Source of the DNA: a virus
DNA: 46,208 nucleotides
IMG/VR virus record: IMGVR_UViG_3300028883_000069
Reading direction: 5' to 3' (one strand)
Of this stretch, positions 1,132-46,208 are shown piece after piece (position 1 is the first letter of the stretch; each line of letters opens with the position of its first letter). Both the position numbers and the translations under genes were made by a program. Under the pieces are notes generated by a model. It was given only the letters and a program-made list of their open reading frames with translations. It was not told the DNA's origin and searched no databases.

Positions 1132-1207
1132 CATCTGTTGATAGGTTAAACGTTTTACGGGGGGAGAGGCTTATAGTCTTTCCCTCTGTAGGACAAAATG
1201 AAAATAC

Positions 1208-1215: not shown

Positions 1216-1247
1216 AAAAAGTTAAATAATTTATTACTTAAAGTAGT

Positions 1248-7275: not shown

Positions 7276-10626
<3,351 letters not shown>

Positions 10627-24804: not shown

Positions 24805-25385
24805 AGAAAGGATTTACGTTCTTTAGAGAATACAGAAAATTATTAGAAGGGTTAGGGGATAAGGAGAGACTTTTAATGTATGAAGCAATCTTTAGTTTCT
24901 TTTTAGATGATGTTGTAGTGGATGTTGGAAATCTTGGAGTTATTTTTGAGGCAATAAGACAGTACAAACCTCCAGGAAAAACAAAGAAGAAAAGATGGAC
25001 CACTCTTAAAAAAACTATTAAAAAGGTTGATAATTACAGCTCTTACCTTCGGAGTAGACATTGGAAGAACTTTAGGGGATATATATTAACTTTACACAAG
25101 AGATGCAAGATATGTGGGACTACTGAGAATTTGGAGGTTCATCATAAATGGTATGGTACTCGAAAGAAAAGTGTTTTATACCAAGAGAGTGATGATGATG
25201 TAGCAGTTCTTTGTAAGAAGTGTCATGATCTTTATCATAAGGAGTATGACAGAGCAACTAAAGCAAACTTCAAGAGATTCTATGATAAATATGCCAAGGG
25301 TTATGTGTCGAGGATAATTAAAAGAGATGGAACCGTTATAGATATGGCTAAAGCCGCTGAAGAAATTAAAAAAAGGAATAAATAA
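24801..25385 (+). CDS. HNH endonuclease domain protein with replication-associated-like N-terminal domain
   Basis: C-terminal CKICG...LEVHHKWY...VLCKKCHDLYH. ATGA overlap with the upstream gene. Confidence 0.75.
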   Translation: MKKGFTFFREYRKLLEGLGDKERLLMYEAIFSFFLDDVVVDVGNLGVIFEAIRQYKPPGKTKKKRWTTLKKTIKKVDNYSSYLRSRHWKNFRGYILTLHKRCKICGTTENLEVHHKWYGTRKKSVLYQESDDDVAVLCKKCHDLYHKEYDRATKANFKRFYDKYAKGYVSRIIKRDGTVIDMAKAAEEIKKRNK

Positions 25386-25403: not shown

Positions 25404-25619
25404 ATGAATTACTTTCCACTAGGAGACATAGATGAAGCAAGGTATGAACTCTGCGAAAAATACAAACTGGTCGAGTATGTTAACGGAGTTTATAGATTGA
25501 CTCAAAAGTGTAGAGATAATTACGACGAAATTTCCTTTATCAAATATTTAAAAGGAGATCTATCTCAACCACTTAAAAAAGGAAAAGAAACTGCTATTCA
25601 AGAATTACTGGCTTTGTAA
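25404..25619 (+). CDS. hypothetical protein (71 aa)
   Basis: Last + strand ORF of the module. Its 3' end overlaps the convergent gene by 22 nt. Confidence 0.55.
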   Translation: MNYFPLGDIDEARYELCEKYKLVEYVNGVYRLTQKCRDNYDEISFIKYLKGDLSQPLKKGKETAIQELLAL

Positions 25620-26047
25620 TCCCTAATTACCTGAGAAACTAAAGACTGACTTACCCCATACTCATTGGCTACCTCCTGCTGGGAATGACCCATTTCATAC
25701 ATTTTTACTATAAGACTATCTCTGTATTCTCTACCTTCAGGACTGTTATCGTAGCGTGTTCCTTTAAGGATTTCTCTAAGTCGTTTATAAGAAAGTCCTA
25801 GTTCTCTTGCTACGGGGATTAACTTTTTACCCTTGTCTAACATATCGATTACAAAGGGCATATACTCAGAGTATTCTTCCCACCTTTCTTCTTGGCGCTT
25901 TTGTTCAAGTTGCTCTTTGATTTGCTTGTAGTCAGGCATTTTACGCAGTTTAAGGTATATAGCCTCTCTTGAGCAGCCTTGGTTACGTGCAATCTCTGCT
26001 ACTGGAACTCCCCTCTTATACAGTTTTCTTATTATTTCTGTTGTCAT
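25598..26047 (-). CDS. triple helix-turn-helix DNA-binding protein (candidate late-gene activator)
   Basis: Three HTH-like units: VPVAEIARNQGCSREAIYLKL, IPVARELGLSYKRLREIL and SQQEVANEYGVSQSLVSQVI. It is the last gene of the leftward operon. Confidence 0.7.
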   Translation of the reverse strand: MTTEIIRKLYKRGVPVAEIARNQGCSREAIYLKLRKMPDYKQIKEQLEQKRQEERWEEYSEYMPFVIDMLDKGKKLIPVARELGLSYKRLREILKGTRYDNSPEGREYRDSLIVKMYEMGHSQQEVANEYGVSQSLVSQVIRDYKASNS

Positions 26048-26064
26048 AATGTTGCCTATTTAAT

Positions 26065-26544
26065 TTATCTCTCAATGTTAGACCGTATAAAACTGTCTGT
26101 TTGGCTTTTTACTTTAGTCTGGGTATAGCTGATAAGTCTGTCGCAATTGATGTATAAGCTTCTAAGCCTTCGTGCCTTATGACTGGCTGCTAATCTTTCG
26201 GCTCTTATGTCGTCGCAACTTTGCTCTGCTAATGACTTGGCCATAGTGTCAGTCATTTTCTTGCCACTGTTTTTAAGTTCTAAGTATTTATCCGTAACAC
26301 AAGTCTTGTATTCCTCGTCTAGTGACTCTGCTCTAGCGTAAGCATAATCCTGAAGGTCGCTTAAATTGTCCATTATTTTACACAAGGTAAACACATGGTC
26401 GACTAAGGAATTCATGTTCCACTCGTTGACGGGCTTTTCCTCGATTTTTTCTTTTATGAGAGATATCTTTTTAATCGTTTCCGTGGCTTCCAACTCTATC
26501 TGATTGGCCTCAATATCCCTCATTACTTCGTCGCTTTTAATCAT
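26065..26544 (-). CDS. hypothetical protein (159 aa)
   Basis: ORF in the leftward operon, overlapping the upstream stop. Confidence 0.65.
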   Translation of the reverse strand: MIKSDEVMRDIEANQIELEATETIKKISLIKEKIEEKPVNEWNMNSLVDHVFTLCKIMDNLSDLQDYAYARAESLDEEYKTCVTDKYLELKNSGKKMTDTMAKSLAEQSCDDIRAERLAASHKARRLRSLYINCDRLISYTQTKVKSQTDSFIRSNIER

Positions 26545-26755
26545 AGTTTTTCTTTTTAATTTTATATCCTCTCTTGTAAAGGCCTAACTTTTCGGCCTCT
26601 TTGATATGCTCCCCCACCCAGTTATGGCACTCCCTACAAAGATATATTATCTGCGTACCACCTCTACTCTTTGTTACCACATGGTGCTTATCTAAGGTCG
26701 CATACGCTTCACTCTTACCACAACGCTCACACCTTTTTTCGTCTAAAAATCCCAT
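26537..26755 (-). CDS. small HNH endonuclease
   Basis: CERCG...LDKHHVVTKSRGG...YLCRECHNW. ATG 26755 forms a TAATG overlap with the rusA stop. The ORF track extends to TTG 26767. Confidence 0.75.
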   Translation of the reverse strand: MGFLDEKRCERCGKSEAYATLDKHHVVTKSRGGTQIIYLCRECHNWVGEHIKEAEKLGLYKRGYKIKKKNYD

Positions 26756-27144
26756 TACCCTACACAATAAAAACTTATTTCAAAAGACTCTTTATCACTA
26801 TCGTACTTATACCAAGAACCTCCAAGTATTCTACTGTCGTCAATTTTCTCGCCGTTTTCGTCTACTACCTTGTTGTGCAACACCGTGTCTATAGCATACT
26901 TGATTAAATTGTGAGCATCCTTCTTGCGCACATTACCGTTCTTGAAATAAATGGGATAGAAATAAAGGATCTCCGTTTCGTACCACTCACTGGCGCAAAT
27001 AGTCTGCTCCTTTACTGTGAGTAAAATAAACTCCTCCCACTCCTTGTACTCCTTGGTCTTATACCCACCTCTTGAACTTGTCCGTATGGCCCTGTTCTCT
27101 GATACGGGCAACATATCAATTTTAAAGGTCACACACTCTTTCAT
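26755..27144 (-). CDS. rusA: RusA-like Holliday junction resolvase
   Basis: LPVSENRA...GGYKTKEYKEWEE...KKDAHNLIKYAIDTV...DDSRI matches the RusA family layout, including conserved acidic residues. Confidence 0.7.
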   Translation of the reverse strand: MKECVTFKIDMLPVSENRAIRTSSRGGYKTKEYKEWEEFILLTVKEQTICASEWYETEILYFYPIYFKNGNVRKKDAHNLIKYAIDTVLHNKVVDENGEKIDDSRILGGSWYKYDSDKESFEISFYCVG

Positions 27145-27166
27145 ATCTCTATATAAATAAAATTAA

Positions 27167-27373
27167 CTAAATAACTAAAAGCCAGATTATCATAGTTGCG
27201 ACAATTAAAATCATAAATATCCCGAATGTATCTTTATTACCCTCTTTATAGTTATCGTATGCTTGATACCCGAAAAAGGTTAAAAAAGCACCAGCTATGC
27301 CGAACAAAAACACTAGGACTATTCCTGCTATAACAGTGAATACGGCCACTGAACCATTTGAATTTTCTTTCAT
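27167..27373 (-). CDS. small membrane protein (68 aa, two hydrophobic helices)
   Basis: VAVFTVIAGIVLVFLFGIAGAFLTFF and FGIFMILIVATMIIWLLVI. Confidence 0.65.
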   Translation of the reverse strand: MKENSNGSVAVFTVIAGIVLVFLFGIAGAFLTFFGYQAYDNYKEGNKDTFGIFMILIVATMIIWLLVI

Positions 27374-27563
27374 TTAAATATATATAAAAAATTAATTCTT
27401 ATCTGTGCGTGGGTAGTGTGGCTAGCAATACCGTACTACCCCCGAATTCTAAATCGCAGTTGGTATTCCAGGAACTGCCCGAACCTATAGAATACCGTGG
27501 TTGTCTGCTCATACGTGCTACTTCACTTGCACAGACGGGGCATTATCCCCCAGGAATATTCCT
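27374..27563 (-). ncRNA. ORF-free, GC-enriched, multi-hairpin intergenic element (candidate cis-regulatory RNA or ncRNA)
   Basis: Stems GGGTAGT (27411..27417) / ACTACCC (27435..27441), GGTATTC (27462..27468) / GAATACC (27490..27496), a nested GTCTG...GTGC...GCAC.AGAC hairpin, and GGGGcattatCCCC. No plausible ORF. Confidence 0.3.
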
Positions 27564-28181
27564 TTAAATACTCTTGGCGGACACCGTCTCTAAAATTTCT
27601 TTTTGATGGTCTTTGACCCAGTCTATCATTTCACTGTCATACTCTAAGTTCTCTAACTCCCAAGTGCCATCATTTTTGAACACTATAACTGCTAGATCAC
27701 TCTTCCAGTCCATAGCATACGAGTACATACTCAATTGCCACCTTGCCTTTTTAATCTTACTGGACACCCTTTTATATTTACTCTTCTTCCACGCACCATA
27801 AGTCTTCCAATCTGCTAAGTATCTTTTGTGCGACTGCCTATGCTCTATAATGCCGTCATACCTACCTGCATAACTTAACTCATCACAGTAGACCACCTCT
27901 TCTGTTTTTACTGGAATCCACTCTTTAGTGAAACTTTCCACCGCCGAGTATAACCTGCTCTCTAAATCGTCCACTGGAGGCTCTGTGAGCCATTCTAAGC
28001 CCCTTGATATATCGTTTATATATTCTGACACCTTGGAGCCTAGAATTGAACTGGTTGCAGAAATTAATTCTGGGTCAATTCCCTTGCTCTCACACCATTT
28101 TTTAAAAGAGCTATCATTAAATGGTTTCCTAAGTTCTATTACCGAGGTCACCGACAAGTATTTTCCATCATATATTCTCAT
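27564..28181 (-). CDS. PD-(D/E)XK family nuclease (recombination exonuclease/Cas4-like fold)
   Basis: YAGRYDGIIE ... YLADWKTY gives a D...(D/E)xK arrangement. ATGA overlap with the upstream gene. Confidence 0.55.
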   Translation of the reverse strand: MRIYDGKYLSVTSVIELRKPFNDSSFKKWCESKGIDPELISATSSILGSKVSEYINDISRGLEWLTEPPVDDLESRLYSAVESFTKEWIPVKTEEVVYCDELSYAGRYDGIIEHRQSHKRYLADWKTYGAWKKSKYKRVSSKIKKARWQLSMYSYAMDWKSDLAVIVFKNDGTWELENLEYDSEMIDWVKDHQKEILETVSAKSI

Positions 28182-29119
28182 TTGACCAAGCTCTCAACAC
28201 TCTCTAAAAGAGCCTTTCTATCTTTACTATCTAAGTTTTCCACTTTACTAAAGAAAGAAGATAGTATCTTGTATGCCTGTTCATAGGTTATTAACCCAGT
28301 CTTTACACCGAGAAGTTCGTTCGAACTTACGTTAAGGGCCTCTGTGATTTTTTCTATCTTGCTCATAGGAGAACTTTCTCCTCTTTCGTACCTAGAAATC
28401 ATTTCCCATGTTACTCCAACCTTTTCTGCTAGTTCTTGCTGAGTTAATCCCGCATCTTGTCTAAGTCGGGAAATATTTCTTCCAATCTTATTAGATACCG
28501 TATTCTCTGTATCTATCTTCTCTTCTTTAACTTCTTTCTTTTTGGGTTTTTTTGTTTCACCAAAAAGGGTTGGTATTTCATCTAGGGTTTTCTTTCCAAC
28601 GAGTAGGTCAGGGTCTATCTGGAGAGCTTTTGCTATTGCTTTTATTCTGTGCATGGCAGACCTTTGTCCACACTCATAGTCTTTAATTGTCCATTGTGAT
28701 AAGTTGAGCATACTAGCAAGTTCCTTCTGTGTTAAGTCTCGCAACTTCCTAAAGGTTCTTATGTTGTTACCAATTTTAACTGTATCTAGGGCAATTTTTA
28801 CAAATTTTGTTCGGTCATTTATTGTCGCAGGGGCAAGAGAAATACCCCTAGATTCATCAGAAAGGGGAAACTTCTTAAGGTGTCCCTCTTTGGTTGCTCT
28901 GTCAATTGAGGCATAAAATCTTACTCTTTCTTTAGAATCGTTTAACGAATGCTTCATGGCCTTAGCGACATCTGTTGGTCTCATTGCTAAGCCTGTCCTC
29001 TTATAATAATCCTCTACAGTTGACACTATTTGTTTAATTAGTTTGTCTCTATTTTTATATTTTCTCATTTTACTTTTACTTAAGTTAAAATATTTATTTA
29101 AAGTTTTTAATATATTCAA
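28178..29119 (-). CDS. transcriptional regulator with two XRE-type HTH domains plus an N-terminal winged-helix-like region
   Basis: IGNNIRTFRKLRDLTQKELASMLNLSQWTIKDYECGQRS and IGRNISRLRQDAGLTQQELAEKVGVTWEMISRYERGESSP. TTG start with GGAGG 6 nt upstream. Confidence 0.85.
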   Translation of the reverse strand: MNILKTLNKYFNLSKSKMRKYKNRDKLIKQIVSTVEDYYKRTGLAMRPTDVAKAMKHSLNDSKERVRFYASIDRATKEGHLKKFPLSDESRGISLAPATINDRTKFVKIALDTVKIGNNIRTFRKLRDLTQKELASMLNLSQWTIKDYECGQRSAMHRIKAIAKALQIDPDLLVGKKTLDEIPTLFGETKKPKKKEVKEEKIDTENTVSNKIGRNISRLRQDAGLTQQELAEKVGVTWEMISRYERGESSPMSKIEKITEALNVSSNELLGVKTGLITYEQAYKILSSFFSKVENLDSKDRKALLESVESLVK

Positions 29120-29137
29120 TCTTGACCTCCTTTTAGG

Positions 29138-29590
29138 CTAGAAAGGTAAATCGTTTTCTAAATCTACTCCTTCTTCTTTCATAGATTCTTTAGTAAACTC
29201 CATAGCTTCTTGCACTTCAGGGCTATTACCCTTAAAGATTACCTTTTCAAGTTTGGCAACCCTATCCTGTAGTTTTTTCACGTCTAGGGCTAAGGATTGT
29301 TTATCAGGTTTAGTCATTTGAAAGTTAAAGAACACTCTGCCATATTTCTCGGTCTTAGTGACTGCTCCAGTTAGGGTTGTCCCTATCTCCCAGTTAGAAG
29401 TATTGTCAAAGTAGTCAAAGTAGGTCATTTTCCCCTCGAAGTCTGGGTCGTCTACTGCTCTTGGGTCTATGTAAATATCTACTTTCTTAAAGGGATTACC
29501 CTTTGCACTCATATACTTTTCTCCGTTTTTGTCCTCTTCGCTCTTGTATATCTTTTGTATCTGAGCATTTTCTAATTTAATTTCGTCCAT
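29138..29590 (-). CDS. SSB-like protein (OB-fold candidate with acidic C-terminal DLPF tip)
   Basis: The C-terminus ...EEGVDLENDLPF mimics the D-(I/L)-P-F tip of bacterial and phage SSBs. It lies in the replication/recombination operon. Confidence 0.5.
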   Translation of the reverse strand: MDEIKLENAQIQKIYKSEEDKNGEKYMSAKGNPFKKVDIYIDPRAVDDPDFEGKMTYFDYFDNTSNWEIGTTLTGAVTKTEKYGRVFFNFQMTKPDKQSLALDVKKLQDRVAKLEKVIFKGNSPEVQEAMEFTKESMKEEGVDLENDLPF

Positions 29591-29607
29591 TATTTTATTT
29601 GTTTAAT

Positions 29608-29982
29608 TTAAATGTTTTGCCACTCTAAAGAAAAGTTGTATAAATCATAGTAGTCTTGGTGTATAGGTTGTCCATAAATATCAGCAAAATACTCTGCTAT
29701 CTCAAAGACTGTAATATATCCCTCTGTCATGTTTGTCATACCAACCTCTAAATCATTAACATATCCCAAGGTTTCTTTTGTGTCTTTGTAAACTATCTTT
29801 TCTACCTCAATCTCTTTTATTTTAGGCTCACACTCAGGACATTCTTGGCACACTTCACATTTTTCGCACATCTCACACTGCTCACTACCTATTGAGCCTA
29901 CTGATACACCAAATAGAAATACAACGAATACACCTGCAAGTATTCCGAACACTTTTAACAGGACTTTAGTTTGATGAGTCAT
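29608..29982 (-). CDS. membrane-anchored protein with Cys ladder CEMCEKCEVCQECPEC
   Basis: N-terminal helix VLLKVFGILAGVFVVFLFGVSV, followed by six Cys residues at exact 3-residue spacing. Confidence 0.7.
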   Translation of the reverse strand: MTHQTKVLLKVFGILAGVFVVFLFGVSVGSIGSEQCEMCEKCEVCQECPECEPKIKEIEVEKIVYKDTKETLGYVNDLEVGMTNMTEGYITVFEIAEYFADIYGQPIHQDYYDLYNFSLEWQNI

Positions 29983-30328
29983 TTTGACCCTCCTTATAAT
30001 TTATATTGTTGTCCTCACATAGTTTATAAAGTCTTAGGACTTCAGACTTAGCCTTTTCAAATTTCTCGCCGTACTCTTCTGCTACCTCTTTGCGTACTTT
30101 GTCTATTAAGTCATTTCTTGTACTGCGTATTTCTTTAGAGAGTTTATCAAAATATTTCTTGACTAACTTCTCTACTGTTTCGCCCAATACATCTGCTCTA
30201 TCGTTTTCTTCAATATACTTAGATATACCCATAGTAATACCTACATTACTAAAAGGTATTCCTTCTATCGGCTCTTTGTAAACTGCTTCCGTCCATATCA
30301 ACTCTTTTCCTTCTGGTATTGTATTCAT
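29966..30328 (-). CDS. hypothetical protein (120 aa)
   Basis: ORF in the operon. Confidence 0.65.
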   Translation of the reverse strand: MNTIPEGKELIWTEAVYKEPIEGIPFSNVGITMGISKYIEENDRADVLGETVEKLVKKYFDKLSKEIRSTRNDLIDKVRKEVAEEYGEKFEKAKSEVLRLYKLCEDNNINYKEGQNDSSN

Positions 30329-30462
30329 TACATTGCCCCTAAGATATTAGATAAAACATTTACTATTAAAATGCCGTAAACCAAACTTACTCCTATGCCA
30401 ATAAACAGCATACCTATTAGCATAAACCACTGGGCTTCTAAGCCCTCATTAGTTTCTTTCAT
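30328..30462 (-). CDS. 44-aa single-pass membrane protein (MKETNEGLEAQWFMLIGMLFIGIGVSLVYGILIVNVLSNILGAM)
   Basis: Hand-translated. ATGA overlap with the upstream micro-ORF and TAATG overlap with the downstream gene. Below the ORF-track cut-off. Confidence 0.55.
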   Translation of the reverse strand: MKETNEGLEAQWFMLIGMLFIGIGVSLVYGILIVNVLSNILGAM

Positions 30463-30614
30463 TGTTCCCCCCTTATTAGTTTCCAAAAATAAGTCCAGTC
30501 TTCTTGTCTAAGACTTTCCATTTCAGCCAGTTTTACAAAAAACTTTGCAGGAATTGACTGAGCGTCCTTGAAGAGTAAATATGCTTCTCTTCTAAGCATT
30601 AGGTCTATATCCAT
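30459..30614 (-). CDS. 51-aa hypothetical protein (MDIDLMLRREAYLLFKDAQSIPAKFFVKLAEMESLRQEDWTYFWKLIRGEQ)
   Basis: Hand-translated. The stop overlaps the next ATG (ATGA), which argues for genuine coupled translation. Confidence 0.5.
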   Translation of the reverse strand: MDIDLMLRREAYLLFKDAQSIPAKFFVKLAEMESLRQEDWTYFWKLIRGEQ

Positions 30615-30906
30615 ACTACTACTTATATAATTTAAATAAACCTCCTTTTGCCCAGGTACCTTGTGAGTATCCAGACAAAGGGAACTGTACTTAAACAGTG
30701 ATCTAGGGAGGAGGAAATACTGTTAAAAACCTCCTCGCCTAGACGACCATTGGGGCAAGGGTGCCGTGGCTCATTACACCTTAGCACCAGCCGAATGTAA
30801 TATTTTGCTAATATTTTTTACTCCCCGTGCTTATCAGCATCCGTTTTTTCGGTTAATGACTTTGCTCCCCATTTTAAAGAACGGCAGTTTATAGTCTTAC
30901 TTAGGA
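30615..30906 (-). ncRNA. ORF-free, GC-enriched structured intergenic element (candidate ncRNA or riboregulator)
   Basis: 12-bp bulged hairpin CTAGGGAGGAGG (30702..30713) / CCTCCTCGCCTAG (30729..30741). Further stems (- strand sense) CCGTT/AACGG, GGTGC/GCACC and ACTGT/ACAGT. An AAAGGAGG box lies 27 nt from the nearest start codon. Confidence 0.3.
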
Positions 30907-31212
30907 CTAAAGGTCAGCAAATATGTCTATCGGATTACCACTTGCTAACTCTGACCTTTTTACCTGTACTTCTTCTACTGCTTGTAGTTCAGGGTGTACC
31001 TCTTGGACTTTACGCCTTGCTCTAGTAATACTTTCAAAAGTCGGTGCGTCTTCAAAGCCTTTATAATCTAACACAGTTATTACACCATACCTACCCTCGA
31101 CATTAATCAAACAATTCCTTCGTCTTAACACTTCCCATATCAAACTCTTATCTGAACTTCTAGTTTGTGGTGCCTTTATCAAAATGTCCTTAACTAAATC
31201 GTATAGTTTCAT
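30907..31212 (-). CDS. hypothetical protein (101 aa from ATG 31212)
   Basis: ATG 31212 forms an ATGA overlap with the upstream stop. The ORF track extends to 31251. Confidence 0.65.
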   Translation of the reverse strand: MKLYDLVKDILIKAPQTRSSDKSLIWEVLRRRNCLINVEGRYGVITVLDYKGFEDAPTFESITRARRKVQEVHPELQAVEEVQVKRSELASGNPIDIFADL

Positions 31213-31451
31213 TGCTCTGCCTCCTGCTTTGCTAACCTTATTTTCTCGCACACTTCTAAAATGCTCCCAAACTCAAGATGATCCTGCTCACTCATAGGCT
31301 CTAAGCCTACCTGTATCATGTACTCTGTTAAACTTCTATCAACTAAGTCTAACTCTTCTGGGGTAAATGACACTTTTACAAAATGTTCCTCTTCAGGTAA
31401 GTTTCCCCAATACTCACCATCTTCATTGAAATTTGCTGGTATATTATTCAC
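31209..31451 (-). CDS. hypothetical acidic protein (80 aa)
   Basis: ORF in the leftward operon. Confidence 0.65.
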   Translation of the reverse strand: MNNIPANFNEDGEYWGNLPEEEHFVKVSFTPEELDLVDRSLTEYMIQVGLEPMSEQDHLEFGSILEVCEKIRLAKQEAEQ

Positions 31452-34717: not shown

Positions 34718-34790
34718 GCTCCTGTAGCTTAGCTGGTAAAGCATTCGCCCTGTAAGCGAAAGTGCGAAGGTTCGATTCCTCGCAGGAGCT
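34718..34790 (+). tRNA. tRNA, anticodon UGU (Thr) by hand-folding; atypical C33
   Basis: Acceptor GCTCCTG/CAGGAGC, U8, D-arm GCTT-AGCTGGTA-AAGC, anticodon stem TTCGC/GCGAA, loop CCTGTAA, T-loop GGTTCGATTCC, no encoded CCA. Caveats: C at position 33, and two unpaired positions at the base of the T stem. Confidence 0.75.
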
Positions 34791-34819
34791 CTCTTATTTA
34801 ATTTTAGCCGATAGTAAAA

Positions 34820-35074
34820 ATGCTCAAACCGTTAGGAGAAAGAGTCCTTATACAACAAGACGAAGAACGAAAGATTGGGAGTATAGTGTTACCTCAAAAC
34901 GTCTTGGAAAACAAGATAGTGATTTCGGGTGTTGTAAAGGAGGTTGGAGATACAAAAACACTTAAAAAAGGTTATAGGGTGTATTATAGGAAATTTGTTG
35001 CACACGAGTTAGAAAAGGACGACAAGAAGTACAGCATAATTAAGGAGGAGGACATTTTAGCATACGAGAGATAA
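34820..35074 (+). CDS. groES: GroES/Cpn10-like co-chaperonin
   Basis: MLKPLGERVLIQQDEERKIGSIVLP...ISGVVKEVGD...GYRVYYRKF...YSIIKEEDILA aligns by eye along the whole length with the bacterial GroES pattern. Confidence 0.8.
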   Translation: MLKPLGERVLIQQDEERKIGSIVLPQNVLENKIVISGVVKEVGDTKTLKKGYRVYYRKFVAHELEKDDKKYSIIKEEDILAYER

Positions 35075-35075
35075 T

Positions 35076-35369
35076 TTGAGTTTACTGCCTATGTTAACTC
35101 AGTGGAGGTACAAAATAACGCAGAAGTTCACCGTAGAGGGTGGGAAGATCTACGGGGCTAAGAGAACGGACTATTATTTGCATACCAAGCCTCGTCCAGA
35201 CGACGTATATCTTTACAAACCTTCTGGAAAAAAGTATGATTATGTAGATTACACAGGTAGTGGTAAGCACCTAGGAGTAACATGTTGCGACAAGACCACT
35301 ATGTTAGAGTTCCTAGGGTATATTAAGTACGTTGAAAGGAAGAGCCTTGATGAGTCTGGCCTTAAGTAA
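35076..35369 (+). CDS. hypothetical protein (97 aa; TTG start, alternative ATG 35091)
   Basis: ORF between groES and the small terminase gene. Confidence 0.55.
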   Translation: MSLLPMLTQWRYKITQKFTVEGGKIYGAKRTDYYLHTKPRPDDVYLYKPSGKKYDYVDYTGSGKHLGVTCCDKTTMLEFLGYIKYVERKSLDESGLK

Positions 35370-35826
35370 CAAAATAGAAGCCTACAAAAAGTCTCAGAAC
35401 TTGTCCAAGTGGGACGAGACGAGTATACGCAAGGAGTGTAGACGTTTAGAAAACGCCTTAGGTATGGACAAATACGACATAGAGCCCAAGCAGTACAAAA
35501 TGCTGCGTAAAATTTCCGAGGATTTAAAGATTGGTGAGAAGGTAGACTTGCAGGCTGCTGCACGTTGGGCTGGGTATCCTGACTGGCAGGTAAAACGACC
35601 AGAGACGGCGATACTGAGAAATATTCCCAACGCATTATTTAACGAGGTGGTAGGGATTAACAGAAACGAGATAGAAATGGAGTTGGTCAAGGTTATGAAG
35701 CAAGACGATAATTTGAACGCAAAAAATCGGGCGATAGAGCTTGCTGCCAGAATTACTGGTATGAGTGAGCCTGAGAAGGGGTTACAAATTAATATAGTTA
35801 ACGACGGTATTACCGTAGCAGATTAA
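35350..35826 (+). CDS. terS: terminase small subunit
   Basis: AAARWAGYPDWQVKRPETAILRNIPNALFNEVV and NAKNRAIELAARITGM resemble small-terminase (Terminase_2-like) motifs. It lies upstream of terL. The ORF track starts at TTG 35332. Confidence 0.6.
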   Translation: MSLALSNKIEAYKKSQNLSKWDETSIRKECRRLENALGMDKYDIEPKQYKMLRKISEDLKIGEKVDLQAAARWAGYPDWQVKRPETAILRNIPNALFNEVVGINRNEIEMELVKVMKQDDNLNAKNRAIELAARITGMSEPEKGLQINIVNDGITVAD

Positions 35827-36071: not shown

Positions 36072-36336
36072 GAAGGCAAGGTGTTATGTGTGCAAGGACA
36101 TTGTGCCAAGGTTTATGACGTTGATAGTGAGCACGCCAAAGGGAAAATTTCGGGTGTGCCAAGACTGCTATCGAAGGATTGAAATGGATAAGATGAACGA
36201 AAGGTATCAGACGACCAAGGAGAATATAAAGATCTACAACATGAAGGATATAGATGCTTACAAGATAATTAAGGAGAGAGAGAAATTTTTAAAAGATATT
36301 AAAGAAGGAAAACTAAACCGTGGCAAAACATCTTGA
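36052..36336 (+). CDS. zinc-ribbon protein (94 aa)
   Basis: CYVCKD...CQDCYRR. Confidence 0.65.
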   Translation: MLMSSFEKARCYVCKDIVPRFMTLIVSTPKGKFRVCQDCYRRIEMDKMNERYQTTKENIKIYNMKDIDAYKIIKEREKFLKDIKEGKLNRGKTS

Positions 36337-37447
36337 TTTATTTACAGGTTATGGTGGCTTTACAATTCCTGCTAGGAAGTACGGAATAGATACGGTTAAT
36401 TTTAGTGAGGTAGACAAGTATGCAAATGCAGTTTTACAATACAGATTCCCGAATATCAAAAATCTCGGAGATGTCTGCAAAATCAAAAAGGAAGATATTT
36501 CCGAACCTATTGATATTATCACAGGGGGAAGCCCTTGCCAGGACTTATCAGTTGCTGGAAAAGGTGCTGGACTCAATGGAGCTAGGAGTGGACTATTTTT
36601 TCACTTCATCCGACTCATTAGCGAAATCCAACCTACTTATTTTATCTGGGAGAATGTTAAAGGAGCTTTTAGCTCTCAGAGAGGATGGGACTTTGCAAGG
36701 GTGCAAATTGAAATGGAACAAGCAGGGTATGATGTATGGTGGCAACTTCTCAATGCCAAAGATTTCGGGGTACCACAAAACAGAGAGCGTATCTTTGCAA
36801 TCGGTATTAGAAAAGGAAGTGGACGAGAAATACTATTTGAGCAAAGAGAGTCAGGACAAAATATTAGCAAGATTGTAAACACAGGACACGATGGAACAAA
36901 CGTGTTTAGTCCAGATGGAACTGGTGTAACACTAAAAGCTAACGGAGGAGGACAAGGTGCAAAGACTGGGTTGTATGCAGTAGCAAGTAGAAACCGAGGA
37001 AACGGAAAGAAAGCAGAGTTTAGAGATGACGCTTATAACTCACTCACAAGTGTTAAGTCAGATAGTATGGTGGCAATACCTATGAGATGGAGTAGAACAG
37101 AAAAGGGAAAGAAAGCGAGAAAGGAGTCAATGAAAAAAGGTAAGGACTACACACCGTTTAACAGAGGACACAGAAAGTTAGTAGAAAGTGGGGAAGATAT
37201 ATCTGGCTGTGTAACTAATGCACTTAAAAAAGATAGTTTATTAAAAGAAGATATGCGAATAAGAAGACTAACTCCTACAGAAACAGAAAGGTTAATGGGG
37301 CTAGAAGATGGGTGGACTGCTAAGGGTATTATGGACGGAGAAGAAGTGGACATATCAGACACTCAGAGGTATAAGATGTGTGGTAATGGTGTAGTAGTGA
37401 ATTGTGTAGATTATATATATAGTATAATGCTAAATGGCAAAACATAG
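36320..37447 (+). CDS. dcm: DNA (cytosine-5)-methyltransferase
   Basis: Motifs in order: DLFTGYGGF (I), GGSPCQDLSVAG (IV), ENVKG (VI), QNRER (VIII), GNGV (X). GTG start. Confidence 0.9.
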   Translation: MAKHLDLFTGYGGFTIPARKYGIDTVNFSEVDKYANAVLQYRFPNIKNLGDVCKIKKEDISEPIDIITGGSPCQDLSVAGKGAGLNGARSGLFFHFIRLISEIQPTYFIWENVKGAFSSQRGWDFARVQIEMEQAGYDVWWQLLNAKDFGVPQNRERIFAIGIRKGSGREILFEQRESGQNISKIVNTGHDGTNVFSPDGTGVTLKANGGGQGAKTGLYAVASRNRGNGKKAEFRDDAYNSLTSVKSDSMVAIPMRWSRTEKGKKARKESMKKGKDYTPFNRGHRKLVESGEDISGCVTNALKKDSLLKEDMRIRRLTPTETERLMGLEDGWTAKGIMDGEEVDISDTQRYKMCGNGVVVNCVDYIYSIMLNGKT

Positions 37448-38834
37448 TATAAGTACAAGTGATTTAAAGATAACCTTTGACGGTAAGGTCATGTACGACC
37501 CGTTACCCCAGCAGAGAAGGTTTCATTTAAGTCCTGCCAAGTACAGGCTCCTAGGAGGTGCTGTAGGAGGTGGTAAGACGGCTGCAATAATTGCTGAGGC
37601 CATAATGCGTTCTTTAAAGTACGACTTCCCATTAACGGGTGCTATATTTAGGAGGAGTTTTCCTGAATTGGATGCTACGATAATTCGCACGATGTTAGAA
37701 ATGCTCCCTGAGTGGTTATACAAATACAACCAGGCTCAGCACGTAATGACACTTAAAAACGGTTCTATTATAGAGTTTTGCTATGCAGAGACAGATTCAG
37801 ACGTTATAAGGTATCAGTCAAGAGAGTGGGATTGGCTGGGGATTGACGAGTTGACGCATTTTTCAGAGTATCAGTTTACCTATTTATGTACTCGTGTTAG
37901 AACGGTCAAGCCGATTAATACTAAAATCTTTGCTGGGACTAACCCAGGAGGGCGAGGACATAAGTTTGTAAAAGAAAGGTTTGTGACTAAAAATTGTTTA
38001 GAAGAAAACTACAATCCTAAAGACTACGATTTTATTAAGGCAGGTATACAGGACAACCCGTACTTAATGGAAAACAACCCTGATTATTTGGAGAATCTTA
38101 AAATGCTTCCTGAAGATGAGAGGAAAAGACTCTTAGAGGGTGACTGGGACGCTGTGTCGGGTATGTTCTTTACAGAGTGGAGTCCTACAAGGCACGTGGT
38201 GGACGATTTTGACGTTCCCGAGGACTGGCAACTGATTATGGGGTGGGACGACGGGACTAGAGAGCCCAGGAGTGTACACGTTTATGCCATAGACAACGAC
38301 CAGAGGGTATGGTGTATTTGGGAGTATTACGAAAAGGAAGAAAACTTGGCTGTAGCAGCGGAGAAAATAAAAAAACTGCTACAAGATAATGGTATGTGGA
38401 ATAGAATGTATAAGTGTGTGGTAGACCCCAGTATGAAACGTATAGATAGTCATACGGGCCTGAGTAGTGTAGACGTGCTTGAGGGGTTAGGCTATGGGTT
38501 TGGTATAGGAAACGTGGAATTGGGAAACAATAAAAGAGTAGAAGGTTGGCGTGTTATGAAAACGTATTTGAGCCATAAGCCTTATGAGGAGCCCTTGATA
38601 AAATTCTTTAAAAGTTGTAATAATATTATACGTACAATTCCTGAGCTCATGTATTATGAGCCCAGAAGTAGTGCGAGTAGTAAGAAGGAGGATTTGGATA
38701 CTACACAAGAGGATCACGCGGCAGACGACTGTCGTTATGTGCTGATGTCTCTGGACAGACTTCCTTCACGCTTTGAGAGTTCTAGCTACGTAACATTAAA
38801 GAAGCGTGGTTATAACCCAAAGACGGTATATTAA
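37434..38834 (+). CDS. terL: terminase large subunit
   Basis: Walker A GGAVGGGKTAA, Walker B WLGIDELTH, and a C-terminal nuclease-like region with acidic residues (EDHAADD). Confidence 0.85.
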   Translation: MAKHSISTSDLKITFDGKVMYDPLPQQRRFHLSPAKYRLLGGAVGGGKTAAIIAEAIMRSLKYDFPLTGAIFRRSFPELDATIIRTMLEMLPEWLYKYNQAQHVMTLKNGSIIEFCYAETDSDVIRYQSREWDWLGIDELTHFSEYQFTYLCTRVRTVKPINTKIFAGTNPGGRGHKFVKERFVTKNCLEENYNPKDYDFIKAGIQDNPYLMENNPDYLENLKMLPEDERKRLLEGDWDAVSGMFFTEWSPTRHVVDDFDVPEDWQLIMGWDDGTREPRSVHVYAIDNDQRVWCIWEYYEKEENLAVAAEKIKKLLQDNGMWNRMYKCVVDPSMKRIDSHTGLSSVDVLEGLGYGFGIGNVELGNNKRVEGWRVMKTYLSHKPYEEPLIKFFKSCNNIIRTIPELMYYEPRSSASSKKEDLDTTQEDHAADDCRYVLMSLDRLPSRFESSSYVTLKKRGYNPKTVY

Positions 38835-38851
38835 TTATTATAAGGAGTAGT

Positions 38852-39481
38852 ATGAGTAAATATTATATGTACCTTGCCGAGAACTATAACGGCCCAGACC
38901 CCTTCATGACGGAGTGGGATTATGAGTCTATCGGCGACAGGTTACGCAAAGAGTTCGACGAATACTTTGCTAAAGAAGAACAAAGACAGAACGCTGGTGC
39001 TGGAAAGACCAAGCAATTATTTAGGGGAGAGTATGTTAAGAAGTTCATGATTTCCAAGAGGGTTAATTTAATAGACAATCCTGCTAATGGAAACCTCAAA
39101 TCCGTGTTTGTACTTAGAAAAGGCGAAAAGAAACTCGTAGACGGAAGAGCAAGGAAGGCTTTTTCTAGGTTTGAGTACAAAATTAAGTCCAGTTCTGACG
39201 GTTTAGTGTCAGACCCGACAGGTTTTATCAAGTTTGAGGTCGTAGAACCCGAAGAAAATGTCGAAAATGCTCAAAAAACTTTCAAAGTTGAAGGAAATGA
39301 TATAGAATATTTCCAAGAAGAAGAGAAAATCGAAGAAAAAGAACAGAAAATTGAAGAAATTGTTAAAAAAGAGACAAAAAAGGCAGAAAAAGAAGAATTT
39401 ACCTGCGAAATATGTGGAAAATCGTTTGATAGCAATAGAGCATTACACGCACATAGCTTAGTTCATAAAAAGGATAAATGA
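38852..39481 (+). CDS. protein with acidic/K-E-rich linker and a C-terminal canonical C2H2 zinc finger
   Basis: FTCEICGKSFDSNRALHAHSLVH (39407..39475) fits (F/Y)xCx2Cx3Fx5Lx2Hx3H exactly. Confidence 0.8.
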   Translation: MSKYYMYLAENYNGPDPFMTEWDYESIGDRLRKEFDEYFAKEEQRQNAGAGKTKQLFRGEYVKKFMISKRVNLIDNPANGNLKSVFVLRKGEKKLVDGRARKAFSRFEYKIKSSSDGLVSDPTGFIKFEVVEPEENVENAQKTFKVEGNDIEYFQEEEKIEEKEQKIEEIVKKETKKAEKEEFTCEICGKSFDSNRALHAHSLVHKKDK

Positions 39482-39762
39482 GCACACGAATACAAATAGG
39501 AATACCCATATCAACGGACAGTGTTCCTAGCGCTTTTTACAAATGGTTTGATGATATTAAGGAAAAATACGAATTTCGCACAATGGAAGTTAAAAATGGG
39601 GAGATTCAAGTAGTAAGAGTAAGGACTCCCATAGAGGGAATTAGAGTAGTAGAACACCTTAAGTACGGCAAAATAGTCTCTGATAGTTCAGGGGAATCAT
39701 TAGAAAGAACATTTATTCCACGCTATAGTAGAGAAAGGGACGAGATTATTTTAGAACAATAA
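39478..39762 (+). CDS. hypothetical protein (94 aa)
   Basis: ATGA overlap with the upstream gene. Confidence 0.65.
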   Translation: MSTRIQIGIPISTDSVPSAFYKWFDDIKEKYEFRTMEVKNGEIQVVRVRTPIEGIRVVEHLKYGKIVSDSSGESLERTFIPRYSRERDEIILEQ

Positions 39763-39779
39763 AATAAACAAACTTTAAA

Positions 39780-42059
39780 ATGGAAGAAAAAACTTTGCCT
39801 AAAAGGCGTTATACTAAAGCAGAAGCCGAAGTAATAGATAAAGTACGCAGTGATTTTAATAATTCTAAAAAGTCTCGCCAAAATAGCTGCTACTGGGGAG
39901 CACCCTCAACGAGTGGTAATTGGCAAGAACGATGGGATTTACAAGAGAAAATAGATTTAGGCTGGGCACAACCGCCAAAGCAAGACGAGTTTGAGAGTAA
40001 TGTAAAGTCCCCAATGAGTTCAGGAAGAATAGAGTCTACCATGCACAAGTTAAAGAAATTAGACTTACAGTTTGTGGTTAGACCTGATGATATAAAAGAT
40101 CCTAAAGACAAGCGTAAAGCAAGGGTAATACAAGAATTACTCAATAACCTGTTTGAACGAAGAGAGTATAAAGCACGTATGGTAACGTGGTTTAAAGACT
40201 GTTTGGTTCATGGTACAGCGTTTATGCACGTTTATTATTTGAGAAAAAAGAGAAAGGTTCAAATGCCTAAAACAGACGTTGATAAAATGTCTGACGAGGA
40301 AAAAGAGAAACTACAAAACAGAGAGAAATTGTTTGAAGAGGACGTTTTATATGATTACGACGACATAGCCTTTGAGCCTGTTAAAATACAGGAAATATTT
40401 GTCGACCCGAGTGCAAGAAACTTACACGGTACAAGCTACGAGGCACAGTATATTATAAGAAGAATGCTACCATCGCTGGCACAATTTAAAGCAATGTATT
40501 CAGCCGACCCTGACGCTAAGAACGTCAATAAGGTAAGGCCTGTTTCTCACTATATTGGGGAAGAGACTGAGTTCTTTGAGCCCCCAACCGACGTGGACAA
40601 CGACGAGTATGTTGAAGTCCTACACTACTATAACAAGGCTGAAGACAAGTATGTGGTGGTAGCAAACGACGTTTTAATCAAAGATATGCCACTACCATAC
40701 AAGCACAAACAACTACCTTTTATTAAAATCGACGCTTACGAAGTACCGCACCAATTCTATGGTATGGGCATTCCTGATAAACTAATGAATATACAAGGTG
40801 AAGAAGAAATTCTTAAGAATCTAGTCTACGATAGGTTACATATTACAGCCAATCCTATAGTAAAAGTGAAAAAAAGTATCTATGGGGAGTTTAGTAAAGC
40901 TTATCAGACTGCAGAGCCTGGGTTAATGATACCAGTCAATCAGCAAGACGATGTAGAGCCGTTAGAGTACCAGACAATGAACTTTGATATGTTTAGAGGG
41001 ATAGACGCACTTAATAGAGACGCAGTATTAGCGACACAGATAGACCCAATTCAAATGGGTGTTAACCAAAAGTATGTTTCTGCCACAACGAGTATGCTCA
41101 CAAAAGAGCAGATGGATACATACATACTGAGTTTAGTAGAAACATGGACAGAGCCACTTAACACAGCGGCAAAGCAGATAATATCTCTTATGGAGCAATT
41201 TTACACAGTGCCTAGGGTTGAGGCGGCAGGTAAGACTGCTAAAAACAAGAGAGTAAGGCTTGCTGATATAGAGATTAATCCTAAGACACTAGAAGTTACC
41301 GAAAAAAGAGGTAAGTATACAGACTTAGAAATAAGTGAAGAATACTTTAATATTAACGGAGATTGGGATGTGGAGATAGATTCAGAGAGTGTAGAAGTAC
41401 AGAGTAAGGCTATAGAAATGCAAAAGAGTCAGGCAGCGATAGCCCAGTTGGCACCATTTATGGTAGATCCTCAAAACACTCAGGCTACTATGCAACACCC
41501 AACACCGTGGGTAGACGGGCCTAAGACACTGGAGTGGTATATGGAGACCAATAATATACCAAGAGAGTTAATGGCTGTATTAGCAGAAGACGAGGACATT
41601 TCTATAGAGAGAGCAGAACTGCAGGGCAAAAAGATGTTGGGTGGAGATATAGTACCAGGTATTCCAGGAGAGTCTGAAGTGCATAAGAAAGTCCACGTTG
41701 GACAATTAAGAGTTATAAATGACCAAAGGCAGAAGATAGAAGACCAGTTGGGTGAATTACCTCCAGAAATGATGCAAATGATAATGGAGACCCCAGAAGG
41801 GCAGAAACTACAGGAATTAGACGAGAAGGCAAGGATACTCGCAGACCACTTAAGGACTGATGATTTACCGAAAGCAGCAGGGGTGCAGGTAGCAGCCGAC
41901 CAGGCAGCACCACCACCACCACCAGAGGTTCCAATGCCACCAGGATTAACTCCAGCAGGGGGTGGACAACCACCAATGCCAGCAGGAGGCAATCAACAGA
42001 GTGGTATGGCACCACAAATGCCAGAGGGTAGACCCCCAATGGCCGAAACAGGTATTTAA
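39780..42059 (+). CDS. portal protein (759 aa) with Pro-rich C-terminal tail
   Basis: Its size and its position between terL and the scaffold/capsid genes. C-terminal PPPPPEVPMPPGLTPAGGGQPPMPAGG. The call is positional plus general portal-like composition. Confidence 0.75.
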   Translation: MEEKTLPKRRYTKAEAEVIDKVRSDFNNSKKSRQNSCYWGAPSTSGNWQERWDLQEKIDLGWAQPPKQDEFESNVKSPMSSGRIESTMHKLKKLDLQFVVRPDDIKDPKDKRKARVIQELLNNLFERREYKARMVTWFKDCLVHGTAFMHVYYLRKKRKVQMPKTDVDKMSDEEKEKLQNREKLFEEDVLYDYDDIAFEPVKIQEIFVDPSARNLHGTSYEAQYIIRRMLPSLAQFKAMYSADPDAKNVNKVRPVSHYIGEETEFFEPPTDVDNDEYVEVLHYYNKAEDKYVVVANDVLIKDMPLPYKHKQLPFIKIDAYEVPHQFYGMGIPDKLMNIQGEEEILKNLVYDRLHITANPIVKVKKSIYGEFSKAYQTAEPGLMIPVNQQDDVEPLEYQTMNFDMFRGIDALNRDAVLATQIDPIQMGVNQKYVSATTSMLTKEQMDTYILSLVETWTEPLNTAAKQIISLMEQFYTVPRVEAAGKTAKNKRVRLADIEINPKTLEVTEKRGKYTDLEISEEYFNINGDWDVEIDSESVEVQSKAIEMQKSQAAIAQLAPFMVDPQNTQATMQHPTPWVDGPKTLEWYMETNNIPRELMAVLAEDEDISIERAELQGKKMLGGDIVPGIPGESEVHKKVHVGQLRVINDQRQKIEDQLGELPPEMMQMIMETPEGQKLQELDEKARILADHLRTDDLPKAAGVQVAADQAAPPPPPEVPMPPGLTPAGGGQPPMPAGGNQQSGMAPQMPEGRPPMAETGI

Positions 42060-45079: not shown

Positions 45080-46208
45080 ATGGGAACAACACATTTTAAA
45101 GGAAACCTAGACGTAGGGGGAAACCTATCAGTAGGTGACAGTGGAGTTCTGCAATTACCAAGTGCAAGTTCTGCACCGTCTAGTCCTTCTGTAGGAGACG
45201 CATACTATAACTCTACAACAGGTAAAGTTATGATGTATCAAGAAACAGGATGGACAAGTGTTGACGGTACAGCAGCTGCAAGTTTAGACGCTGCTTATAA
45301 TGGTGGTGCTACAATCGCAGTAGACGGTGGAGCAGTCACATTGACTGACTCTCAGACTGGCTCTGGTGGAGGACTACTTATTACCAAGAGTGGAGTCGTA
45401 ACAGGTTCTGATGACGCTTCAGTACTTCATATAAACTCAACAGCCGACCACGACACAAGTGGCGACATAAAGTTTATGGAAATTTCTGTAGCTTCAGAAT
45501 CTTGTTCAGGAAGTATTTATGGTATCGAGATAGAAATGAATGCTAATACCGACAGTGGTATTACAATCACAAAAGGTGCCATGACACTTACCGACGGAGC
45601 CTTAACTCTTACAAGTGGTAACTTAACACTATCAAGTGGTAACTTGACCATGACTGGTACATTGGCCGTAACAGGTGCAATGACAATCAGTTCTTCAATT
45701 ACAGCACAGGGTGCAATCATAATTGATGCTAATGCGGCAGAGTGCTTCTTAATTCGTGAGAATGGAGACACAGCTGACGTATTCACTATTGATACTACAC
45801 AGGATGCAGGAGACACAACAGCAAAGATTGAGAGTAAAACAACCACAGGTATTGCTTTACACGTTGATTCAGACACGACCACAGGGTCAGCTGTATTAAT
45901 AGATGGTGATGCAATTACAACAGGAGACGCACTCTTGATTAGTGTAGCAAGTGGTACAATGGGAGCAACAGGCGCAGCCATTTCTGTTATCGACTCTTCT
46001 AACGCAGACCGAGAGGTCTTTGCAGTTAGAGACGATGGTTCCGTATATATGTACGGTACAGCAGAAGGTACAACAGCAACTCAGACAGTCAAAGGTGATA
46101 TGGTAATCTCTGATGGAGATCTAACAATCTCTGGAGGTGAGGTAGCATTAACAAGTGATGCTAATGCAGCAGGTTTAGTAATTGTTAACAATACAGTTAC
46201 AACTGCTA
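45080..46208 (+). CDS. N-terminal part of wrap-around beta-helix-like fibre protein (continues at base 1, ends 1131)
   Basis: ATG 45080 (MGTTHFKGNLDVGGNLSVGD...) opens a frame with no stop up to the window end. It is absent from the ORF track only because it lacks a stop inside the window. It is in frame with 1..1131 across the overlap. Confidence 0.85.
   Translation, partial: MGTTHFKGNLDVGGNLSVGDSGVLQLPSASSAPSSPSVGDAYYNSTTGKVMMYQETGWTSVDGTAAASLDAAYNGGATIAVDGGAVTLTDSQTGSGGGLLITKSGVVTGSDDASVLHINSTADHDTSGDIKFMEISVASESCSGSIYGIEIEMNANTDSGITITKGAMTLTDGALTLTSGNLTLSSGNLTMTGTLAVTGAMTISSSITAQGAIIIDANAAECFLIRENGDTADVFTIDTTQDAGDTTAKIESKTTTGIALHVDSDTTTGSAVLIDGDAITTGDALLISVASGTMGATGAAISVIDSSNADREVFAVRDDGSVYMYGTAEGTTATQTVKGDMVISDGDLTISGGEVALTSDANAAGLVIVNNTVTTA
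46082..46208. repeat. second copy of the terminal overlap (equals 1..127)
   Basis: Exact identity to bases 1..127. Confidence 0.95.

Follow-up and report, generated by a model that had tools for sequence, protein, structure and literature searches.

No DNA-binding domain is commoner in animals than the classical C2H2 zinc finger, and to our knowledge it is rarely discussed in bacteriophages. A short gene between the large terminase and portal genes of an uncultured virus (IMG/VR record IMGVR_UViG_3300028883_000069) appears to end in such a finger. The locus raises the questions of whether this domain is real, and of what a protein carrying it might do among the packaging and head genes. The stretch of DNA analyzed here (the window, 46,208 nt) is a complete circular assembly with an exact terminal overlap of 127 nt, corresponding to a genome of about 46.08 kb. 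The genome encodes an M23 peptidase lysin and a GroES homologue; therefore, a bacterial host is indicated. In the literature, we found no paper that places a classical C2H2 finger in a phage packaging or head module.

The features of the locus are summarized in Table 1. The finger gene follows the TerL gene after a gap of 17 nt, has a strong ribosome binding site, and shares an ATGA overlap with the next gene, ORF94, which is probably translationally coupled to it. The start at position 38852 is supported by the N-terminus, which is kept among the homologues as MSKYY... or MNKYH.... The C-terminal end of the 209-aa product (ORF 38852..39481, plus strand) is FTCEICGKSFDSNRALHAHSLVH; the translation terminates in ...EEFTCEICGKSFDSNRALHAHSLVHKKDK followed by the stop codon, and this end is equally read as ...KKAEKEEFTCEICGKSFDSNRALHAHSLVHKKDK. 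The sequence-only reading had correctly located the finger at the end of the gene, but the coordinates that it gave (39407..39475) are shifted by +9 nt and encode EICGKS...HKKD; the domain occupies 39398..39466.

Table 1. Features of the packaging and head region discussed in the text (positions refer to the window).
Feature	Position	Strand	Description
Candidate small terminase	35350..35826	+	158 aa, all-helical; separate gene upstream of TerL, position conserved in related loci
Large terminase subunit TerL	37434..38834	+	Terminase_3 and Terminase_6N, E about 3e-11; phrog_979, E 2e-46
Shine-Dalgarno AAGGAG	38842..38847	+	Read from the sequence; 4 nt upstream of the ATG at 38852
Zinc-finger protein gene	38852..39481	+	209 aa, stop codon included; 43 close and about 17 distant homologues
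N-terminal orphan domain (predicted alpha/beta)	38852..39247	+	aa 1-132; net basic, +13 patch over aa 46-112
Acidic Lys/Glu-rich linker, predicted flexible	39248..39397	+	aa 133-182; length varies across the family
Short motif V-E-G-N-D-I-E-Y-F	39287..39313	+	aa 146-154; candidate docking peptide within the disordered segment
Classical C2H2 zinc finger	39398..39466	+	aa 183-205; predicted ligands C185, C188, H201, H205
Short basic tail KKDK	39467..39478	+	Nearly every member has a Lys/Arg-rich tail after the finger
ORF94	39478..39762	+	94 aa; ATG overlaps the stop codon of the finger gene (ATGA)
Portal protein, SU10/P22 type	39780..42059	+	PF23899, E 1.2e-22; phrog_1216

The translation bears out the described fit to the C2H2 pattern. 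The 23-residue motif matches (F/Y)-x-C-x2-C-x3-F-x5-L-x2-H-x3-H at every position, and its ligand spacing, C185-x2-C188-x12-H201-x3-H205, is classical. Judged from the sequence, Zn2+ would be held by these two cysteines and two histidines. With the composition of the window's six-frame translation, 1.7e-6 matches to the strict pattern are expected by chance; none was found in 2000 shuffles, and the match in the finger gene is the single strict match in the whole window. The Pfam profile PF00096 (zf-C2H2) matched the window protein with an E-value of 6.3e-5 and a score of 23.7 bits, which falls 1.5 bits short of the gathering score (25.2), and PF13894 (zf-C2H2_4) gave 23.6 bits with a cutoff of 27. 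These scores of the window protein itself are borderline; therefore, its homologues were examined. At a threshold of E ≤ 0.01, PF00096 matched 35 of the 43 close homologues, PF13894 also matched 35, and PF13912 matched 33 (best E 6.3e-10, scanned singly). Precomputed assignments to PF00096, PF13894, or PF13912 were available for 15 of the 43. The dsRNA-type profile zf-C2H2_jaz gave weak matches in 24 of them. When a profile of the family was used to search the PDB, it retrieved classical finger proteins only, and the matches were restricted to positions 172-198. A tblastn search of cultured phages with the 34-residue finger returned only non-significant matches (E ≥ 0.7).

The close homologues were found in a large protein collection as 43 clusters with 50-100% identity, all metagenomic, and the sole label among them was 'Zinc finger, C2H2 type' (JGI). 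A deep profile search of 1.84 billion representatives added about 17 distant members of 150-235 aa. Of the 59 distinct sequences in the family, which reach down to about 27% identity, 58 keep the arrangement C-x2-C-x12-H-x3-(H/C). Among these 58, the last two ligands are separated by x3 in 57 cases and by x4 in one, and the final ligand is His in 49 cases and Cys in 9. The hydrophobic core is kept as well, with an aromatic residue (F/Y/W) in 54/58, Phe in 52/58, and Leu in 48 or Val in 6. In alignment A1, C185, C188, and H201 show no variation, and conservation at F183 and F192 is above 90%. Invariance within the finger is limited to the four zinc-ligand positions, the fourth being either His or Cys. 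Both residues can ligate zinc; therefore, their exchange while the rest is kept is the pattern that a metal site tolerates. The family is under clear purifying selection at the finger.

An AlphaFold2 model calculated from alignment A1 places two strands (residues 183-184 and 191-192) and a helix (residues 195-207) in the finger with a pLDDT of 70-80, and the predicted fold is beta-beta-alpha. In a Foldseek search, the modeled finger was superposed on the solved fingers of SALL3 (7y3l), ZNF406 (2els), and ZFAT (2rsj) with an rmsd of 0.6-0.8 Å over 25-28 residues; the E-values are poor solely because the match is short. The shortfall of 1.5 bits in the PF00096 score of the window protein could be taken to mean that the pattern is a functionless coincidence. 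However, the conservation of the motif in the homologues independently excludes a chance match, and the expectation value, the shuffles, and the predicted fold also speak against it, so that the probability of this reading is negligible. By its spacing, its core, the profile matches at the family level, and its predicted fold, the finger is, at the level of sequence analysis, a real classical C2H2 domain. Of the outcomes that the sequence-only reading named as refuting the finger, neither a lack of zf-C2H2 profile matches nor a loss of the key residues in homologues was observed.

On the helix of the finger, position -1 is S/T/N, +2 is R/K, +3 is A, and +6 is G/A/M across the family, and these positions are conserved rather than diversifying. 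At the level of sequence, they are compatible with nucleic-acid binding but not decisive. The lysine of the CGK turn is conserved across the family. One lineage (P0069, 14 contigs) lacks the finger and has a Lys-rich tail, KAIKAKKEAKDE, where the finger would stand; a separately encoded finger downstream of this fingerless gene was not found in the locus that was checked (L007).

The N-terminal domain was modeled with a pLDDT of about 84-95 (residues 1-130) and has a mean majority-residue fraction of 0.74. Sequence searches of Pfam, PHROG, NCBIfam, and the PDB gave no match to it. Foldseek searches of the PDB and BFVD matched the finger alone. The N-domain was likewise left unmatched when the PDB was searched with a family-wide profile or with one built from this domain only. 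Because the deep search returned a list full of multi-finger proteins, it was repeated with a profile of the N-domain only. This profile recovered the same family only, with no alternative architecture; therefore, the N-domain is never joined to another C-terminal domain. Judging from the model, the N-domain is a candidate for a new fold without a known relative.

The segment between the two domains is acidic, in agreement with the K/E-rich linker noted earlier: residues 133-182 contain 10 K+R and 18 D+E, and their net charge is -8. For most of the linker the pLDDT is below 50, and one helix (residues 161-177) is predicted. The majority-residue fraction is 0.33 over residues 155-182, and large insertions and deletions are found here in both alignments A1 and A2. 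The peptide VEGNDIEYF stands out from these surroundings, with a majority fraction of 0.85, the highest of any segment of the protein. Its residues G148, Y153, and F154 are invariant in alignment A1, and the peptide is absent from the four most distant members. It is conserved yet lies in a region of low model confidence, which is typical of a docking peptide.

The genomic setting was compared by tblastn of the window's proteins with 29 related loci, which were taken from Logan, JGI, and IMG/VR. All of these loci share one gene order: TerS-like protein, 81-aa Zn-ribbon protein, (Cys-rich protein of 94 aa), TerL, finger protein, (ORF94), and portal, and the module continues with o96, o272, o150, and the major capsid protein. 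The finger gene follows TerL in 29/29 loci, including those whose members share only 27-38% identity, and the location between terminase and portal given in the sequence-only reading thus holds in every related locus. ORF94, which has no family or PDB match, was found in 26 of the 28 loci reaching past the finger gene; L005 and L006 lack it. The finger protein is 50-63% identical where TerL is 69-81% and the portal is 65-89% identical; it is the product of the fastest-evolving gene in the module. In locus L001, TerL has 785 aa and a weak LAGLIDADG match, and at some loci the best alignment of TerL ends about 1 kb early, probably because of an intein. Locus L004 has an extra 127-aa gene inserted between TerL and the finger gene, and its TerS candidate is fused to the Zn-ribbon protein.

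The relatives of this phage are found among uncultured viruses, whose source environments include groundwater or freshwater samples such as JGI 3300001242 and 3300028920. Neither megablast of the TerL-portal region nor tblastn of the protein matched anything in 50,697 GenBank phage records, and the portal and TerL proteins share at most 22-35% identity with those of cultured phages. In the nearest cultured phage, Bacillus phage PK1, the corresponding position is taken by an unrelated DUF3307 gene. The zinc-finger protein family is confined to uncultured phage contigs; it was not found in the GTDB set (one genome for each of 185,579 bacterial and archaeal species), which gave no prophage or host evidence. 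A 14.3-kb contig (LBYS01000024.1) from a GenBank metagenome-assembled genome of Candidatus Uhrbacteria contains the whole module and a 200-aa homologue with the C2HC variant. It is a weak hint at the host and may be a binning artefact. We conclude that the product is a late protein and is encoded by a core gene of one lineage of uncultured bacteriophages with genomes of about 46 kb and a SU10/P22-type portal.

The immediate proximity to TerL suggests a comparison with the small terminase. The finger protein could be a TerS-like subunit in which the finger replaces the helix-turn-helix in recognizing the packaging site; a tethered DNA-binding module on an oligomerizing body would resemble the logic of TerS, and no protein of the module matches any TerS profile. 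However, the finger protein itself belongs to no TerS family in Pfam, PHROGs, or NCBIfam, and its predicted alpha/beta N-domain matches no TerS structure in Foldseek. In addition, one lineage lacks the finger altogether, the recognition positions are not diversified between phages, and in related loci the usual TerS position upstream of TerL is occupied by the 158-aa helical protein. A small-terminase role for the finger protein is therefore distinctly unlikely.

The 158-aa protein is a suggestive candidate for the small terminase by its position, its helical AlphaFold model, and its non-significant Foldseek matches. Small terminases account for 5 of its best 12 matches in the PDB, every one with E > 1: SF6 G1P (4zc3, 2cmp, and 3zqq), NV1 (7joq), and phBC6A51 (2ao9). 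The protein carries an HTH-like segment, and we take its C-terminal NAKNRAIELAARITGM segment to resemble TerS. It has no sequence match in Pfam, PHROG, NCBIfam, or the PDB, and an hhalign comparison indicated that it is not homologous to the HTH protein of PK1.

HNH endonucleases adjoining terminase genes are well known (PMC3592412), and an N-domain, a flexible linker, and a finger together resemble the construction of modular homing endonucleases. The protein could thus be a nuclease with a DNA-binding finger, either an HNH-type terminase accessory like HK97 gp74 or a homing endonuclease like I-TevI. PHROG searches, among them one with 25 diverse members, gave weak matches at the level of the finger only, to phrog_8048 ('HNH endonuclease', E 0.003) and, for one member, phrog_12131 ('homing endonuclease', E 5e-4). 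Against this reading, the window protein has no HNH or GIY-YIG match in Pfam at E ≤ 1 (PF01844 and PF14279 included), and no such family was reported at E ≤ 0.01 for the 43 homologues. All four ligands of the finger would be used for the structural zinc and saturate the metal; therefore, no catalytic His or Asn is left. A bona fide HNH gene is located elsewhere in the phage (23816..24061, 33.8 bits on PF01844), and the finger gene, in contrast to a mobile one, is found at every locus and always in the same place. Two nuclease folds were considered by eye for the N-domain and rejected. A PD-(D/E)XK arrangement (alpha-beta-beta-beta-alpha-beta, with D75 and E92-x-K94) has residues that vary in the distant members of alignment A2, and no nuclease was matched by profile or Foldseek searches. 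A start similar to GIY-YIG (beta-beta-alpha-alpha-beta) has its beta1 Tyr replaced in the distant members and gave no profile or fold match. A nuclease function is very improbable.

The explanation that we prefer, although we give it somewhat less than an even chance, combines four parts: the net-basic N-domain, the acidic-aromatic VxGNDIEYF peptide, the variable acidic linker, and the C2H2 finger (C2HC in some members) with its Lys-rich tail. The finger would be a small zinc-stabilized binding module for a polyanion, probably DNA, and would have low sequence specificity. A flexible tether would connect it to the N-domain, which may dock on the packaging or portal machinery, and the protein may act during genome packaging or head completion. 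The domain layout, its conservation, the predicted fold, and the constant gene position are what the analysis shows; the target, the partner, the timing, and the zinc are what we infer here. A role in DNA packaging or in binding DNA inside the capsid, as the sequence-only reading had suggested, would likewise follow from gene position and architecture. The tether is suggested by the low pLDDT, the low conservation, and the large length variation of the linker, and polyanion binding by the conservation of the CGK lysine, the R/K at position +2, and the basic tails. The lineage in which a Lys-rich tail takes the place of the finger suggests that generic binding to polyanions is an adequate substitute. 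The helix positions are conserved, small at +3 and +6, and not diversifying, which suggests one common target and low specificity. Specific DNA binding is compatible with small residues at +3 and +6, as plant QALGGH fingers bind DNA.

Several observations argue against this explanation. The N-domain is an orphan, neither experiment nor homology ties the protein to any packaging or head protein known so far, and gene position alone is weak functional evidence. The borderline PF00096 score of the window protein and the weak dsRNA-type matches also count against it, and the rapid evolution of the gene relative to its neighbors would equally fit an accessory or host-interaction role. Single C2H2 fingers often make protein or RNA contacts. 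The finger could accordingly be a protein-protein module or a purely structural zinc knuckle in an assembly chaperone or scaffold-like adaptor for the portal, TerL, or capsid, with no binding of nucleic acid. The Ala and Gly/Ala residues at the base-contact positions +3 and +6, the conserved acidic-aromatic peptide of docking type with its acidic linker, and the location within the assembly module in coupling with ORF94 are consistent with such an adaptor. However, the conservation of Lys/Arg at +2, of the CGK lysine, and of the basic tails argues otherwise, and the Lys-rich tail of the fingerless lineage is more in keeping with polyanion binding than with a specific protein interface. We regard the adaptor as doubtful.

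The role of the protein may also lie outside assembly, as a late regulator of transcription or translation or as an early nucleic-acid binder delivered with the virion. The C2H2 fingers of archaeal viruses are read as transcription regulators (PMC6080066), and the zf-C2H2_jaz matches and the faster evolution of the gene relative to its structural neighbors point in the same direction. On the other hand, the position in the TerL-portal operon is fixed in every locus, including the distant ones, and HTH regulators are encoded separately in the early region of the phage genome (25598..26047 and 28178..29119). This role appears unlikely.

Returning to the tethered, low-specificity finger that we prefer, a fuller version can be formulated, in which the protein is a third component of the packaging/portal machine. 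The orphan domain would sit on TerL or the portal, and the tethered finger, of eukaryotic type, would grip the genome as it enters or once it is packaged, for example to anchor the DNA end at the portal or to hand the DNA to the motor, in a widespread lineage whose hosts may be bacteria of the Candidate Phyla Radiation. As a whole, this extended proposal is to be viewed with considerable doubt. Binding of DNA at the portal or terminase would make the finger a new kind of accessory in the well-studied scheme of TerS, TerL, and portal and a compact natural example of a single finger on a tether. Even otherwise, the protein represents a new phage protein family with a candidate for a new fold. 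What is new here is a family that combines an orphan domain with a single finger and is a core gene of the packaging/head module in bacteriophages. It implies that a domain of eukaryotic appearance in a metagenomic phage need not be a chance match or contamination but can be a long-standing resident. A domain of 23 residues holds too little signal for a phylogeny of its origin.

Compared with fingers of the TFIIIA/Krueppel type (PF00096, PF13912, and PF13894), the phage finger has the same C-x2-C-x12-H-x3-H spacing, the F/F/L core, and the CGK turn. In contrast to the TFIIIA/Krueppel arrays, the phage protein has a single finger without TGEKP linkers, and unlike in the classical finger proteins, this finger is placed at the extreme C-terminus, preceded by an orphan domain and an acidic linker. 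In the 9 of 58 members that have Cys, the fourth ligand also departs from the classical C2H2 type. The helix consensus of the phage family, (R/K)-A-L-x-G-H, resembles the QALGGH helix of single-finger proteins of plants, such as SUPERMAN, which would explain the strong matches to PF13912. Plant single fingers of the SUPERMAN type bind DNA with the help of flanking basic residues.

Among bacterial proteins, Ros/MucR has a known C2H2-type DNA-binding domain that functions as a single finger (PMC9779718). It differs from the phage finger in its ligand spacing and its larger globular fold; the phage spacing is the classical x12, as the sequence-only reading had pointed out, and assignment to Ros/MucR was rejected since no Pfam match to that family was obtained at E ≤ 1. 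The terminase-associated HNH endonucleases with zinc ribbons (HK97 gp74 type; PMC3592412) share with the phage protein a zinc module of the beta-beta-alpha type beside the terminase and portal genes. The phage finger differs from them in having neither a His-Asn-His motif nor an HNH profile match, and its C2H2 site would be a saturated structural one. Small terminases are likewise small proteins of the packaging module that carry a DNA-binding type of module on a body domain, which the finger protein appears to do by its sequence; they show no sequence or fold similarity to it, and its gene is located downstream, not upstream, of TerL.

The proteins that come closest in their setting are encoded by other viruses of prokaryotes. 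AFV1p06 is a further C2H2 protein of an archaeal virus. C2H2-type proteins of prokaryotic viruses were also among the BFVD fold matches, for instance R4TFX2 of Halorubrum tailed virus 4 with an rmsd of 1.1 Å. A classical C2H2 finger is present in B129 of the archaeal virus SSV1 (PDB 2WBT, cited in PMC6080066). The earlier statement that classical fingers are overwhelmingly eukaryotic was therefore overstated; they are not exclusive to eukaryotes, and the bare presence of the domain is less exotic than was implied because it is known in viruses of prokaryotes. The phage protein shares with the archaeal-virus and haloarchaeal tailed-virus proteins a finger of the classical type encoded by a virus of prokaryotes. 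However, the archaeal-virus proteins are small products of early genes, whereas the phage protein belongs to a late packaging/head operon, its finger is fused to an orphan domain of 132 residues, and the host indicated for it is bacterial.

The gene at the position usual for the small terminase subunit encodes an all-helical protein that has no profile match anywhere. Small terminases accounted for five of its 12 best Foldseek matches, none of which was significant. In the related locus L004, the counterpart of this protein is fused to the 81-residue zinc-ribbon protein (922..1668), and the fusion suggests that the two proteins cooperate. The next gene encodes a small Cys-rich protein, and it lies directly 5' of the large terminase subunit (TerL) gene in many relatives. 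The terminase region thereby contains three distinct putative zinc-binding proteins, the Cys-rich protein being the third. In the window, an inserted C-5 cytosine DNA methyltransferase gene separates the Cys-rich gene from TerL. Of the 29 related loci, only L009, a contig identical to the window, shares this insertion; therefore, the methyltransferase gene looks like a recent acquisition.

Features annotated in the window
Feature	Coordinates	Strand	Remarks
Collagen-like tail-fibre protein, 1114 aa	7282..10626		Very strong repetitive PHROG matches
HNH-type endonuclease, clear	23816..24061		PF01844, 33.8 bits
HNH-type endonuclease, weak	24801..25385		18.2 bits; N-terminal part DUF6291-like
Minus-strand gene block	25598..31451	-	HTH regulators and weak PD-(D/E)XK nuclease
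HTH regulator	25598..26047	-	
PD-(D/E)XK nuclease, weak	27564..28181	-	
Double-HTH protein	28178..29119	-	
tRNA-Thr (TGT)	34718..34791		Adjoins GroES/Cpn10 gene
Phage GroES/Cpn10 homologue	34820..35074		
All-helical protein, 158 aa	35350..35826		Usual small-terminase position
Zinc-ribbon protein, 81 aa	35826..36071		CxxC...CxxC; adjoins 158-aa protein
Small Cys-rich protein, 94 aa	36052..36336		CxxC...CxxC; weak DUF7685 and RING-like matches
C-5 cytosine DNA methyltransferase	36320..37447		PF00145, E 1e-64

TerL itself varies among the relatives. In several of them, it is approximately 300 residues longer, or its best alignment stops approximately 1 kb before the finger gene. TerL of L001 (5626..7983) has 785 residues and a weak LAGLIDADG match, and a long TerL or an early-ending alignment was also observed in L010, L011, L016, L017, L026, and L029. 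These features suggest inteins or homing-endonuclease insertions within TerL of several relatives; the TerL of the window is without either. Of the two HNH-type genes in the window, the one with the clear match holds the sole C-x2-C...H-H motif of the whole window other than that of the finger protein.

The GroES homologue is also found in the relatives L001, L003, and L011. The local GC content rises to 0.53 at the tail-fibre gene, versus approximately 0.40 elsewhere. The minus-strand block and the long block on the plus strand are divergently oriented, and the sign of the GC skew flips at the minus-strand block. The first and last 127 nt of the window (1..127 and 46082..46208) are identical; therefore, the window is a circular assembly, probably representing the whole genome of approximately 46,081 bp. 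The ORF that begins at position 19 probably runs on from the opposite end.

The same packaging module is carried by L033 (GenBank LBYS01000024.1, GCA_000994725.1), a 14.3-kb contig that encodes a C2HC variant of the finger protein (8153..8755), in which Cys replaces His as the fourth ligand. This contig was binned into a groundwater metagenome-assembled genome of Candidatus Uhrbacteria (CPR), which is either a hint at the host or a binning artefact.
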